Of a DNA stretch of 64,000 nucleotides, positions 32,932 to 49,390 are shown piece after piece. The stretch spans positions 1-64,000 of IMG/VR virus record IMGVR_UViG_3300010430_000024; one strand, given 5' to 3'. The stretch is from a virus. The stretch's first letter is position 1; each line of letters opens with the position of its first letter. The notes below the pieces were generated by a model. It worked only from the letters and a program-made list of their open reading frames with translations. It had not been told where the DNA came from and made no database searches. Made by a program: the position numbers and the translations under genes.

Positions 32932-33007
32932 TGGACCCGCTGCCGGGAGTCGAACCCGGTCTCTCCGCTTTGAAAGGCGTTGACACTCCACAGTGCCTTC
33001 AGCGAGT
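32932..33007 (-). tRNA. Atypical tRNA-like gene, Glu(TTC)-like with an 8-nt anticodon loop
   Basis: Acceptor CTCGCTG/CAGCGGG-T-CCA; T arm CCGGG-TTCGACT-CCCGG; D arm GGCACT-GTGG-AGTGTC; anticodon arm CGC-CTTTCAAA-GCG. Confidence 0.65.
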
Positions 33008-35932: not shown

Positions 35933-36016
35933 GGAAGCGTTGAGCAACTGGTCGCTCAGCAGACTGTAAATCTGTGCCCTCTGGGATTGTAGGTTCGAAC
36001 CCTACCGCTTCCACCA
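35933..36016 (+). tRNA. tRNA-Tyr(GTA)
   Basis: GGAAGCG/CGCTTCC-A-CCA acceptor; GCAGA-CTGTAAA-TCTGT anticodon arm; long variable arm; GTAGG-TTCGAAC-CCTAC. Confidence 0.92.
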
Positions 36017-45909: not shown

Positions 45910-46298
45910 TAAAACGTATCCTCTGATTTACGCGCACGGTAAGCTCGCTTCTGTTCTGCCCAGTGTGCGCGTAACGACTCCATGTTTTTCGCATTCGCAT
46001 ACTTCTCGTAGTTGGTAATTCTCCAGCCCCACTCTCGATGCTCATCCAACCGCACGATGCGACGACCATCCTGACCATCGGTTCTACTTGTCGGGTCATC
46101 TTCCTCAAGGGCTTTGATGCCCTTCTCAAATATCTCTTTGGGGATTGTGGTGCGATGAGATAGTGCGGTCGGGGTCATGTCCACGATGCCGTGCTTGTCT
46201 GCAAAGGTGATTAGAACCATGAAGGTGACGACTGCTTCCCAGCGAGTCTCTACCAGTGAGCCGTCGAACATCGACTCCCAAACTTTCCCGTATGCCAT
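45909..46298 (-). CDS. Replication-initiator-like N-terminal domain protein
   Basis: YGKVWESMFDGSL...ADKHGIV...D..SRT..QDGRRI....GW.ITNYEKY...QKRAYR. Confidence 0.55.
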   Translation of the reverse strand: MAYGKVWESMFDGSLVETRWEAVVTFMVLITFADKHGIVDMTPTALSHRTTIPKEIFEKGIKALEEDDPTSRTDGQDGRRIVRLDEHREWGWRITNYEKYANAKNMESLRAHWAEQKRAYRARKSEDTF

Positions 46299-46350
46299 TG
46301 CTTCCCTTCTTAGTATTAACAGTATTGCTAATCATTGGTGGGTAGGGTTT

Positions 46351-46432
46351 ATCTACATCTACATCTACATCTATATCTACATGTACAAATGTCCGTAGAC
46401 AGTCCACAGACAATAGCAACTGTCCATAGACA
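46351..46432. repeat. Candidate replication-origin repeats
   Basis: ATCTAC x5 (one variant) at 46351-46380; GTCCRYAGACA x3 at 46391, 46402 and 46422. Confidence 0.55.
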
Positions 46433-46434
46433 GG

Positions 46435-46689
46435 TCAAGCAGGAAAGATGTCGGTAATACTGAGGGGATAGTCGTTGCGGCTTGCGATCTCGATGATCTT
46501 GAGTGCGGCTGGTCCACGTGGTTTTGACTTGCCTGCCTCCCAGACCCGGAGCGTGTCGATCTTGGCTTCTATCAGGTCAGCAAACTCTGGTCGGTCCATT
46601 CTGAGTTCTTCACGGAAGCGTCGAATCACATTCTGGTGGGGAGGTGTCGCGTCCGGTCTCTCGTTGGGACCAAAGGAATTTGCCATCAC
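46435..46689 (-). CDS. XRE/Cro-like HTH regulator
   Basis: IRRFREELRMDRPEFADLIEAKIDTLRVWEAGKSKP. Confidence 0.85.
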   Translation of the reverse strand: MMANSFGPNERPDATPPHQNVIRRFREELRMDRPEFADLIEAKIDTLRVWEAGKSKPRGPAALKIIEIASRNDYPLSITDIFPA

Positions 46690-46773: not shown

Positions 46774-46866
46774 GCCTGAGCCGAATGCTCGTCGGTTATC
46801 CGAGCCAAACCTTCGGACGTAACCGCGAAAGCGGTCGTCAATCCGACAGCAACAACATGTTCAGGC
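46774..46866 (+). ncRNA. Y-like RNA unit 1
   Basis: GCCTGAGC(C)GA / CATGTTCAGGC stem; GTCGG-TTATC...CCGAC; internal CCGC-GAAA-GCGG hairpin. Confidence 0.75.
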
Positions 46867-46869
46867 TAA

Positions 46870-46969
46870 GCGGGATGCCAGTGGTGGCATTGCTCCATCG
46901 TCTACACCATGCTCGACAGCGAGCCGACTGAGGATGGTTATCATAGTTCGATTCTATAATCCCGCTCCA
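46870..46969 (+). ncRNA. Unit 2: tRNA-ended RNA with a permuted Ro-binding helix replacing the anticodon arm
   Basis: GCGGGAT/ATCCCGC-T-CCA; D arm GCC-AGTGGT-GGC; T arm ATAG-TTCGATT-CTAT; CATGCTCG-ACAG-CGAGCCGA followed by GGTTATC. Confidence 0.75.
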
Positions 46970-47008
46970 ATTTTGACACGTTGCGAAGCGACGTGGTGAT
47001 ACAAGTTT

Positions 47009-47090
47009 TGTGGACCGAAGATCAATCGTTATCTGTTGAGTGCGAAAAGCGCTTCTTGGAAATACCTCGGTTGCTCATACCATGTCCACA
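47009..47090 (+). ncRNA. Y-like RNA unit 3
   Basis: TGTGGAC(C)GA / CATGTCCACA; CAATCG-TTATC...CGGTTG. Confidence 0.75.
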
Positions 47091-47099
47091 TTTAAGTTT

Positions 47100-47180
47100 T
47101 GCGAGCCGATGAGTAAGAGCGTTACCCAACCTGTTAAGTTGATGGCGAAAGCCACACCGCTCTCTCGCAACATGTTCGCA
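47100..47180 (+). ncRNA. Y-like RNA unit 4 with Asn-type anticodon hairpin
   Basis: TGCGAGC(C)GA / CATGTTCGCA; AGAGCG-TTACC...CGCTCT; CAAC-CTGTTAA-GTTG. Confidence 0.75.
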
Positions 47181-47188
47181 TTTAAGTT

Positions 47189-47335
47189 TTTAGGACCGGA
47201 TGGATTGAAGGTTATCTTCTGAAAAGAGTAGGTCACTGGTTCGATTCCAGTTGCGCACCCTACAATGGTGCGTATAGCTCAGCTGGCAGAGCAACTTGCC
47301 GTAAGGCATCTCCTTCGCCAACAACATGTCCTAAA
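47189..47335 (+). ncRNA. yrlA: YrlA-type Y RNA (permuted tRNA-like domain), unit 5
   Basis: TTTAGGAC(C)GG / CATGTCCTAAA; T arm ACTGG-TTCGATT-CCAGT; loop-closed acceptor TGCGCACC/GGTGCGTA; D arm GCTC-AGCTGGCA-GAGC; adjacent to Ro60. Confidence 0.88.
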
Positions 47336-47341
47336 TTTAGT

Positions 47342-47369
47342 TTGACTTCCTATGTCAGTTGTGTACAAT
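47342..47369 (+). promoter_or_regulatory. Promoter for the Ro60 leader/mRNA
   Basis: TTGACT-16 nt-TACAAT. Confidence 0.7.
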
Positions 47370-47477
47370 CGCCTTTCGGTTGTTCAACAACATGCTCGAC
47401 AGCCCCACAACCGGGCGCAGCTGCGTAGCTGCTTTTATTCGAGCCGAGGAAGAATCGTTATCTATGATGAAGAGGCG
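47370..47477 (+). ncRNA. Unit 6: circularly permuted Y-like element in the Ro leader
   Basis: 3'-type strand CAACAACATGCTCGA precedes 5'-type strand TCGAGCCGA...AATCGTTATC. Confidence 0.65.
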
Positions 47478-47535
47478 TTTGAGGCTCAGTCGGTGAATAG
47501 ACTTCTCAAAGGAGGACACCACTGAGCCGAGCCAA

Positions 47536-47571
47536 TTTTTGTATGCTCGTGATGGACGAGCCGAACAGGGG
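47536..47571 (+). promoter_or_regulatory. Unit 7: minimal Ro-binding hairpin overlapping the Ro60 ribosome-binding site
   Basis: TTTTGT-ATGCTCGT-GATGG-ACGAGCCGA-ACAGGGG, 6 nt before ATG 47578. Confidence 0.6.
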
Positions 47572-47577
47572 AAAAAG

Positions 47578-49209
47578 ATGGACTATTCAAAGCACGTAAA
47601 TACTCGCGCCACCTCACAGCGTGAGCGCACTCCCGGCAGGACTGATGAAGTCAAGAACAGCGAAGGTGGATTCGTCCATGCTGTTAGTGATTGGGATCGT
47701 CTTGACCGCTTCCTGATTCTGGGTTCTGAAGGTGGAACCTTTTACATCAGCGAGAGCAACCTGACCAAGGACAATGCTGAAGGCACCATCCGACTAATCA
47801 AACAGGATGGACTTCGTGTCGTTAATACGGTTGTCGAAATCTCACAGGCTGGTCGTTCGCATAAGAACGATGCTGCCCTGTTTGTACTCGCTATGTGCGC
47901 GAAGCTGGGCAATGAGCAGACTCGTAAGCTGGCACTTGGCGTATTGCCCAAGGTCGCTCGAACGGGTACTCACTTGTTTCAGTTCGCAACCTTCATTGAA
48001 GCCTTCGGTGGTTGGGGCCGCGCAACTAAGCGTGCCTTCCAGCGTTGGTACAATGAGCGGGACAACGACAAGCTGGCTTACCAGCTGTTGAAGTACCGTC
48101 AGCGTGATGGTTGGACTCACCGTGACATCATGCGTCTGGCTCACCCGGTTACGACCGATGACCAGAAGCGTGCGATGTTCGATGTGACGACTCACCCAGA
48201 GAAGCTGGATAACGTAGACGTTCGTGCCGAGCTGCCTGAGATTTATCAGGGCTATCACATGGCGCGTGACGACATGCCCAGCGCTGACAGGGTTGAGCTT
48301 CTGAAAGACTTCAACCTGTCGTGGGAAATGCTACCGACTGAGTGGCTGAAGGATGAAGCTGTGAACACGCAGCTGCTCCAGAAGATGCCGCTCATGGCTA
48401 CCATTCGTCAGCTCGGTAAGATGACTGCGAACGGTACGCTGAAGCCGATGGACATGAACACCAAGCTGGTGTTGGAGCGTCTGATGGATGACGAGCAGAT
48501 CAAGCGCTCACGCATTCACCCGATGCACTACTTGCTGGCGTTGAAGAACTACTCAGCTGGTCACGGCTTCCGTGGCGGCATGACTTGGAACTCTGACCCA
48601 CGTGTGATCTCTGCACTGGATAAGGGATTCGAGAAGTCGTTCGCGAATGTCGAGCCTACTGGTAAGGCGTTCATGCTCGGTGTCGATGTCTCAAGCTCGA
48701 TGCGATGTGCGGTCTCTGGATCGAACATCAGTTGTGCAGAGGCTGCTGGTGCCATGGCAATGGTGATCGCTCGTACTGAGCCTGTTCACTTCGTCCACGG
48801 CTTTACCAGTGGATCGAGTCGCGGCTACAGCTATCGTCAGTCCAATGTTGAGGGCTTCGTTGATCTCGGCATTGGCTCGAACGACTCAATGGCAAGCGTG
48901 ATGAGTAAGGTGCAGAACCGAAACTTTGGTGGCACCGACTGCGCAGTTCCGATGTTGTACGCCTCGGCAAACAACATCATGGTTGACACCTTCGTGGTGT
49001 TGACTGATTCGGAAACGTGGGCTGGTGACATCAAGCCAGCTCAGGCTTTGCAGTCATACCGTCAGACCCATAACCCGAACGCTAAGCTCGTGGTTGTTGG
49101 CATGACTTCAAATGGATTCAGCATTGCTGATCCGAACGATGCTGGCATGTTGGATGTGGTCGGCTTCGACGCTAACGTACTCCCCGTTATCGCGGAGTTC
49201 AGTAGATAA
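47578..49209 (+). CDS. rsr: Ro60 / Rsr (TROVE + vWA) RNA-binding protein
   Basis: NSEGGF...RLDRFLILGSEGGTFY, GWGR...WY, KYRQRDGWTHRD..RLAHP, IHP, DVSSSM, GGTDCA.PM, TDSETW and SIADPNDAGMLDVVGFD. Confidence 0.96.
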   Translation: MDYSKHVNTRATSQRERTPGRTDEVKNSEGGFVHAVSDWDRLDRFLILGSEGGTFYISESNLTKDNAEGTIRLIKQDGLRVVNTVVEISQAGRSHKNDAALFVLAMCAKLGNEQTRKLALGVLPKVARTGTHLFQFATFIEAFGGWGRATKRAFQRWYNERDNDKLAYQLLKYRQRDGWTHRDIMRLAHPVTTDDQKRAMFDVTTHPEKLDNVDVRAELPEIYQGYHMARDDMPSADRVELLKDFNLSWEMLPTEWLKDEAVNTQLLQKMPLMATIRQLGKMTANGTLKPMDMNTKLVLERLMDDEQIKRSRIHPMHYLLALKNYSAGHGFRGGMTWNSDPRVISALDKGFEKSFANVEPTGKAFMLGVDVSSSMRCAVSGSNISCAEAAGAMAMVIARTEPVHFVHGFTSGSSRGYSYRQSNVEGFVDLGIGSNDSMASVMSKVQNRNFGGTDCAVPMLYASANNIMVDTFVVLTDSETWAGDIKPAQALQSYRQTHNPNAKLVVVGMTSNGFSIADPNDAGMLDVVGFDANVLPVIAEFSR

Positions 49210-49228
49210 CATCCTTTATCACTGGGTG

Positions 49229-49256
49229 TTGATTTGTCAGCACCCAGTGGTATACT
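49229..49256 (+). promoter_or_regulatory. Promoter embedded in an inverted repeat after Ro60
   Basis: TTGATT-16 nt-TATACT; TATCACTGGGTGTTGA/TCAGCACCCAGTGGTA. Confidence 0.6.
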
Positions 49257-49260
49257 TAGG

Positions 49261-49390
49261 ATGTGTGAGTGAAGCTGGACAGGCACCTATTAAGGTACAC
49301 GAGTCCGGGTCTGACTGGGGAGCATTCCCCTATTAGGTGAGCGGTTGAAAGTATCGCTGTAAAGCAGGTTGGATTCCTGCCCTCGCACAT
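49261..49390 (+). ncRNA. tRNA-like RNA with expanded anticodon arm
   Basis: ATGTGTGAG/CTCGCACAT; T arm GCAGG-TTGGATT-CCTGC; variable arm AGCGGT/ATCGCT; CACCTA/TAGGTG enclosing two hairpins. Confidence 0.6.

Follow-up and report, generated by a model that had tools for sequence, protein, structure and literature searches.

A conserved hairpin with features of the Y RNA Ro site at the ribosome-binding site of a phage Ro60 gene: a putative Ro60-binding operator

The window analyzed here covers the first 64,000 of the 73,646 bases of a virus record. It carries rsr, the gene for Ro60, downstream of an array of Y RNA-like units. In the leader of this gene, just before the Shine-Dalgarno sequence, we found a small hairpin (47544..47563, + strand) in which the helix of the Y RNA Ro site is present with its two strands in reversed order. 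This is a conserved, sense-strand hairpin with Ro-site features, and it is fixed at the rsr initiation region in two Ro60 clades. The best explanation of its sequence is that it is a cis-acting element of the rsr messenger RNA (mRNA) leader that imitates the Y RNA bulged helix held by Ro60. It may further be a putative Ro-binding operator at which the bulk of Ro60 blocks the ribosome, a reading to which we give slightly less than an even chance.

A conserved hairpin in the rsr leader

The open reading frame (ORF) at 47578..49209 (+ strand, 543 amino acids) begins at ATG 47578-47580 and is a true Ro60 gene. Its product matches the Pfam families TROVE (6.4e-39) and vWA_Ro60 (5.4e-60) as well as solved Ro60 structures (PDB 9nen, 6.7e-117; 1yvp, 6.5e-115; 2nvo, 3.5e-107), and the roughly 800 bases upstream of it are non-coding. 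The original prediction had named TTG 47539 as a possible true start, which would make the leader stretch coding. The frame is indeed open from 47539. However, relatives lack the TTG, and the Ro60 proteins can be aligned from the first residue encoded at the ATG. Among ten close leaders, between 13 and 17 nucleotides (nt) separate the hairpin's CCG (counted from its G) from the ATG, and therefore no reading frame is kept. Thus, a start at TTG 47539 is rejected as having negligible probability, and ATG 47578 holds.

The hairpin has a stem of 6 base pairs (bp), in which GCUCGU (47545-47550) pairs with ACGAGC (47556-47561) around the 5-nt loop GAUGG (47551-47555). At its base, U47544 pairs with G47563 and C47562 is bulged. 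The 3' arm carries GCCGAA (47560..47565, +), which matches the GNCGAA core of the published bacterial Y RNA motif. In excerpts of Chen et al. (2014), that motif is given as GNCGAA(N0-1)G and likened to the GGUCCGA contacted by Xenopus Ro60, which touches mainly this strand; in the window, GCCGAA is followed by CAG. Ro60 recognizes a bulged helix, according to excerpts of PMC12135203. The claim that the leader reproduces this helix in permuted strand order was borne out, and the same helix, in normal strand order, closes four of the RNA units upstream. A Shine-Dalgarno-like AGGGG (47567..47571, +) lies 3-4 nt past the hairpin and is followed by 6 nt and then the ATG, so that the hairpin abuts the rsr ribosome-binding site, as had been proposed. 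All 10 leaders of the window's own Ro60 clade (clade 1) have a purine run at the Shine-Dalgarno place, and all relatives have an A/U-rich spacer 5' of the hairpin, which in the window is the U-rich stretch at 47536..47543 (+).

A Ro60 protein search of viral, metagenome, and genome collections returned related loci whose proteins are 70-81% identical. In leader alignment A1, all seven sequences agree over the 21 nt of 47543-47563, while the flanks varied and contained insertions and deletions. This stretch exceeds every other invariant run of a 2.25-kb alignment that spans seven loci whose coding DNA is 73-79% identical to that of the window; the runner-up is 16 nt. The exact 21-mer was found in seven viral contigs, and in every one of them it lies in an rsr leader. 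We also observed a variant contig from a sediment sequencing run, less than 90% alike over 401 nt, in which positions 47537, 47541, and 47575 were changed and an insertion followed 47576, while 47542-47574 were unchanged. One locus with an identical hairpin, L178 (80% Ro60 identity), is on a 7.2-kb contig that was binned with a metagenome-assembled genome of Desulfuromonadales.

More distant members of the clade, L019 and L103 (70-71% identity), have other stems and loops built to the same hairpin design. In the register-true alignment A4, which includes these stems, 49 of 49 cells were paired; in two pairs both partners were altered (U-A to C-G), and in four a single partner was altered via wobble. 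Only 1 of 500 shuffles reached this pairing, and slid registers paired at most 60.5% of cells. We then defined a strict descriptor, which starts with a pyrimidine, continues with a G-C-closed stem of 5 bp or more and a 3-8-nt loop, and ends with a bulged C followed by G. All nine close leaders with 70 nt of upstream sequence match it, compared with 0.06 +/- 0.24 for shuffles, and L103, with only 44 nt upstream, matches as well. The wobble (G.U) pairs in the relatives' stems place the structure on the rsr sense strand. This bears on the idea that the inverted repeat works as an operator in DNA, or that some other phage or host protein, rather than Ro60, targets the RNA. An invariant loop within an inverted repeat would suit a sequence-specific binder. 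However, DNA or the opposite strand would have mismatches in place of the G.U pairs of L019 and L103, and the flanks match the Y RNA helix, so that we regard this idea as extremely unlikely. Thus, on the grounds of both invariance and covariation, the hairpin predicted at the Ro60 ribosome-binding site is a real, conserved RNA element of the sense strand.

The original prediction also held that a lower stem, UUUUGU/ACAGGG, joins the U run to the Shine-Dalgarno sequence and hides it. In the window's own predicted folds this weak stem does form, with the spacer at 47536..47543 as its 5' half, and the mean probability of being unpaired over positions -15 to -5 is 0.45. In nine clade-1 relatives, by comparison, the same value is 0.56-0.80, and in the RNAalifold consensus of relatives the lower stem is absent and only the 6-bp upper hairpin is kept. 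The lower stem thus stands as a feature of the window's folds and fails as a conserved one. Since it is missing in the consensus and the Shine-Dalgarno sequence is mostly open in relatives, sequestration by RNA alone is not the conserved design.

Folding energies were unremarkable, and thermodynamics alone do not distinguish the leader hairpin. The 27-nt hairpin core folds at -9.1 kcal/mol (z = -2.64), with 5 of 200 shuffles folding as well, and for the 56-nt leader fold (z = -1.07) 26 of 200 shuffles were equally stable. A terminator scan of the window returned nothing at 47545-47561, where the stem is followed by CGAACAGGGG and there is no G+C-rich stem with a U tract.

Occurrence across Ro60 clades

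We placed the leaders on a tree of 196 Ro60 proteins, from which identical proteins and truncated ORFs had been dropped. Matches to the strict descriptor cluster on this tree. In the window's clade, 10 of 11 leaves carry the hairpin, and the exception, L108, has a possible long-loop variant. A second Ro60 clade, about 45% identical, carries the same design in seven of eight leaders (6/7 if L214, from a genome marked unpublished, is left out), with the G of CCG 10-16 nt before the start. Shuffles of these same leaders gave 0.15 +/- 0.40 matches, with a maximum of 2 in 1000. The match in L059, also of the second clade, is false, as it falls on a T-arm. In four of the seven second-clade leaders with the hairpin, the Shine-Dalgarno sequence, GGAGG, begins at the G of CCG itself.

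The second-clade stems differ from one another. Over 20 leaders, pair 3 is U-A or C-G, pair 5 is G-C or A-U, and pair 6 is U-A, C-G, or G-C. In 17 of the 20, the distance from the G of CCG to the start is 10-17 nt. The second-clade rsr genes of L214, L246, L085, L230, and L241 are located inside dense same-strand transfer RNA (tRNA) arrays; each 4-kb locus yields 3-9 matches to Rfam tRNA, and the leader hairpin of L214 lies 2 nt beyond the end of a tRNA.

L077 and L234 form a third group, to which we return below. Between the hairpin and the rsr start, both contain a 4-codon mini-ORF with its own Shine-Dalgarno sequence (L077 1464-1500; L234 1154-1200). The mini-ORF overlaps the rsr Shine-Dalgarno sequence and is preserved in the two loci with start and stop codons that differ between them.

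A covariance model, R1, was built from alignment A4. Its non-training matches above 20 bits were L077 (24.7), L214 (22.3), and L234 (20.5), all at most 75 nt upstream of rsr, and over the whole 73.6-kb virus record it returned one match at E <= 1, the leader. Because matches of about 20 bits arise by chance in GC-rich genomes, the scores of L214, L234, and L077 are weak alone. Of the five R1 genome matches that we inspected, four lie in apparently protein-coding stretches and the fifth is the L234 leader. The match at L261 1501-1528 (- strand) is coding and resembles a response-regulator receiver motif.

The Y RNA-like array upstream of rsr

At least four tandem Y RNA-like units precede rsr (46774-47335), together with the body of a fifth (47439-47535). 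Each unit contains a stem, CCG, and a GTTAYC-type motif, and the unit stems covary across relatives. In unit 1 (46774..46866, +), whose stem also covaries in relatives, the two ends form an 8-bp stem that includes a bulged C. Terminal stems with a bulged C likewise close an 82-nt unit (47009..47090, +), an 81-nt unit (47100..47180, +), and a YrlA-type unit with a tRNA-like domain (47189..47335, +). The last contains the sole Rfam YrlA match of the array (47205-47321), which at 36.4 bits is below the gathering score of 69 (E = 5.9e-6); homologues of this unit in relatives score 36-47 bits against Rfam YrlA. The window contains 14 copies of the sequence GAGCCGA (8.6 +/- 2.9 expected), six of them on the + strand within 46778-47564.

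The array units of close loci allowed us to compare the leader hairpin with the Ro site in detail. Among 25 clean units, the stem leads into C-C-G-purine on the 5' strand and is preceded by AACAYG on the 3' strand. C-C-G and a pyrimidine paired to G are kept in the leader hairpins, but both are required by the descriptor. The A before that pyrimidine (A-Y-G) is present in 11 of 20 leaders. The full GCCGAA is kept in 6 of 20; another 6 have GCCGGN, and 7 have a pyrimidine after CCG.

Two promoter-like sites, each with 10 of 12 matches, are found in this region: P1 (46740..46767, +) before the array, with the same hexamers in L178, and P2 (47342..47369, +) inside it, also conserved in L178. Just 3' of P2 lies a second reverse-order helix (47390..47447, +), formed by pairing of 47394-47399 with 47439-47444; the 39-nt insert between these arms holds two small hairpins. 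The further Y-like unit body starts with the 3' arm of this helix, which is conserved in L178 (~760-815). The conserved insert contains the hairpin GCAGCUGCGUAGCUGC, which was scored as terminator-like in the window because a U run comes next; L178 has no U run there. A junction hairpin of the same design as the leader hairpin is located at 46909..46927 (+), with a 5-bp stem, an ACAG loop, and bulged C46925. It scores 14.5 bits with R1, and its counterparts in L100 and L101 score 17.8 and 13.3 bits. In the junction hairpins at 46909-46927 and 46787-46806, the 3'-strand motif stands directly before the 5'-strand motif, with a CUCG/CGAG stem, and the hairpin at 46787-46806 has CCA in place of CCG.

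Could the leader hairpin be a functionless by-product of the tandem array, with one unit's 3' strand left beside a leftover 5' strand? The same strand order does appear at the array junctions 46909-46927 and 47390-47447, which have counterparts in relatives. However, the leader hairpin includes the best-conserved 21 nt of the locus, its stem covaries, and it recurs in a distant clade. Therefore, we consider an origin as a mere by-product very unlikely.

A second possibility is that the hairpin serves the upstream small RNA as an additional Ro60-binding module, either as a 3' extension or as a tiny separate Y RNA, with no effect on rsr translation. The hairpin adjoins a YrlA-type unit or a tRNA in both clades, and the 5' arm of the window's hairpin would be able to close the unit starting at 47439 as well. 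In addition, excerpts of PMC12135203 describe a phage Y-like RNA with two CGAA motifs that binds Ro60 in more than one stoichiometry. Against this, the spacing to the Shine-Dalgarno sequence and the ATG is conserved, and in clade 2 the Shine-Dalgarno sequence overlaps the motif. In the predicted fold of a transcript from P2, the leader hairpin and the second reverse-order helix each form independently, and by sequence inspection the arms of the L019 hairpin cannot pair with the neighboring unit. An extra module is thus an unlikely explanation.

The position of the hairpin downstream of small RNAs also fits a role at an RNA end. The rsr message might be cut from a Y RNA or tRNA precursor, with the hairpin shielding its 5' end or marking the processing boundary. 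It would then protect the new end from 5'-end-dependent ribonucleases, and Ro60 would be uninvolved or would bind and stabilize the message. In clade 1 the hairpin comes directly after a Y RNA/tRNA-like 3' end and a short A/U-rich spacer, and in clade 2 it comes a few nt after a tRNA or tRNA-like end, with rsr within tRNA arrays. According to excerpts of Chen et al. (2014), YrlA and YrlB of Mycobacterium smegmatis, both located upstream of rsr, arise by processing of a single precursor. That the relatives' Shine-Dalgarno sequence is mostly unpaired would also be consistent with this role. On the other hand, a generic stem needs no bulged C, no pyrimidine-G pair, and no AYG and CCG flanks, all of which are fixed while the stem changes. 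L234 has no tRNA or Y RNA in the ~230 nt read upstream of its hairpin, and the fixed distance to the start points to the initiation region. We regard a role at the 5' end of the message as fairly unlikely.

The rsr locus is surrounded by phage replication and recombination genes, namely those for a primase, a helicase, and a YqaJ exonuclease and a RecT-like gene. The small ORFs at 46435-46689 (-), 46126-46419 (-), and 49112-49336 (+) had no Pfam match. In the divergent intergenic region 5' of the RNA array, a 12-nt unit of the ATCTACATCTAC type occurs three times (46351-46392). ARAGORN called two tRNAs in the window, one at 32932-33006 (-) with an undetermined anticodon and a tRNA-Tyr at 35933-36016 (+); Rfam confirms only the second. 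DNA sequencing runs that contain parts of the window are mainly marine sediment metagenomes, mostly with small shares each. In a phage GenBank collection we found coding similarity only, to Ro-like actinobacteriophage genes at 64-72% identity, and no leader-like sequence.

A putative Ro60 operator and its counterparts

The original prediction held that free Ro60 binds its own leader and represses translation. From the position and make-up of the hairpin, we infer the following series of events. Ro60 that is unoccupied by Y RNA would bind the leader site. This site ends 3-4 nt 5' of the Shine-Dalgarno sequence, and overlaps it in the second clade, so that the bulk of the bound Ro60 would exclude the 30S subunit. 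Ro60 synthesis would thereby track the supply of Y RNA.

Several observations weigh against this reading. Ro60 may not accept a helix whose strands are presented in reverse order. Y RNA units have a purine after CCG in 25/25 cases, whereas 7/20 leaders, including 6/10 in the window's clade, have C or U there; this counts against full equivalence to the Ro site or suggests a weaker site. Eight of 10 close leaders have an invariant hairpin loop, a constancy that a Ro site alone leaves unexplained. In L077 and L234 the hairpin lies 40-50 nt upstream of the start, a distance too great for simple steric blockage. L009 and L010 have the Y RNA 3' strand beside the ribosome-binding site, and the hairpin is absent. 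Finally, distant rsr leaders showed little: 4 of 186 match the strict descriptor, compared with 1.85 +/- 1.32 for shuffles and 3-4 in controls, and 12 of 184 match a relaxed descriptor, compared with 8.6 +/- 2.7. An earlier count over distant rsr leaders likewise gave no enrichment (8/116 versus 13.6 expected). The original prediction had proposed looking for the element in rsr leaders of other genomes. The second clade supports it, but the distant loci indicate that it is not general.

Other arrangements that involve Ro60 could also be considered. The rsr message may itself be a Y RNA-like ligand of Ro60, in which the leader helix and the preceding tRNA or tRNA-like module make up a circularly permuted Y RNA within the mRNA. 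Bound Ro60 could then hand its own message to an exonuclease partner, beyond blocking the ribosome. Alternatively, a shared 3'-strand motif could toggle between closing the last Y RNA and forming the leader hairpin, in L085 and possibly in the window's unit from 47439. If this were true, Ro60 synthesis would be coupled to Y RNA folding or processing. We think a message of either kind quite unlikely. In L085 (~1280-1490), the leader's 3'-strand motif can pair either with an upstream GGGCCGA, closing a Y-like RNA, or with the downstream Shine-Dalgarno strand, and the two folds are mutually exclusive.

Returning to the putative operator, its interest lies in the fact that Ro60 and Y RNAs are mutually dependent, while how their amounts are matched in a cell or phage is unsettled. 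A copy of the Y RNA docking helix at the rsr ribosome-binding site provides a concrete feedback model that is cheap to test, in an element found in a lineage of marine-sediment phages and also in a distant Ro60 clade linked to tRNA arrays. If the model is true, Ro60 joins the RNA-binding proteins that control their own translation by ligand mimicry. If the 27-nt hairpin binds Ro60, it would be a minimal binding site with reversed strand order and useful structurally. Among the listings and opening lines of abstracts returned by a full-text literature search, no paper reported autoregulation of Ro60/Rsr through its own leader.

The closest known relatives of the element are the Y RNAs themselves, both those of animals and bacterial YrlA/YrlB (Rfam RF02553). 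In both, a G-C-closed stem is bordered by a bulged C, beyond which a G pairs with U or C; the GCCGAA of the window's hairpin, kept in 6 of 20 leaders, fits the core of the published motif (GNCGAA), and a like helix closes units 100-800 nt upstream. The differences are equally clear. The leader hairpin reverses the strands, its 5-nt loop caps the side on which a Y RNA has its termini, and it is a 27-nt element of an mRNA leader that lacks both an internal loop and a tRNA-like domain (T and D arms). The Ro site of a Y RNA lies in a stem formed by the RNA's own 5' and 3' termini, whereas in the leader hairpin the 3'-strand motif comes first, and Rfam over 47540-47566 gave no match even at E up to 10. 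Among phages, excerpts of PMC12135203 describe Yrl1 and Yrl2 of Thermus phage phiLo, which are encoded just upstream of the Ro60 gene and are CGAA-motif ligands of Ro60 with gel-shift binding. They are canonical Y-like RNAs with a 5'-3' terminal stem, and these excerpts tie them to neither a ribosome-binding site nor feedback.

The rsr leader also has two features of an operator that works by ligand mimicry: the element is in the leader of its own gene, at or next to the Shine-Dalgarno sequence, and its bulged helix and flanks are common to the Y RNA units of the locus. In the MS2 coat-protein operator, a phage protein recognizes a short phage hairpin that has a bulged base and lies at a ribosome-binding site; this hairpin contains the start codon of a different gene, that of the replicase. 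The rsr hairpin is likewise small, bulged, and from a phage, but it lies upstream of the start of its own gene. In the Escherichia coli thrS operator and in ribosomal-protein leaders, a copy of the ligand is placed 5' of or over the Shine-Dalgarno sequence of the protein's own gene, where unbound protein would be able to compete with ribosomes, and both binding and repression are proven. The placement in rsr is the same, whereas binding of Ro60 to the leader and the resulting repression are inferred from sequence, and Ro60 is a ring protein of RNA quality control rather than a translation factor. By analogy, the feedback logic proposed for Ro60 resembles that of the thrS operator and the ribosomal-protein leaders.

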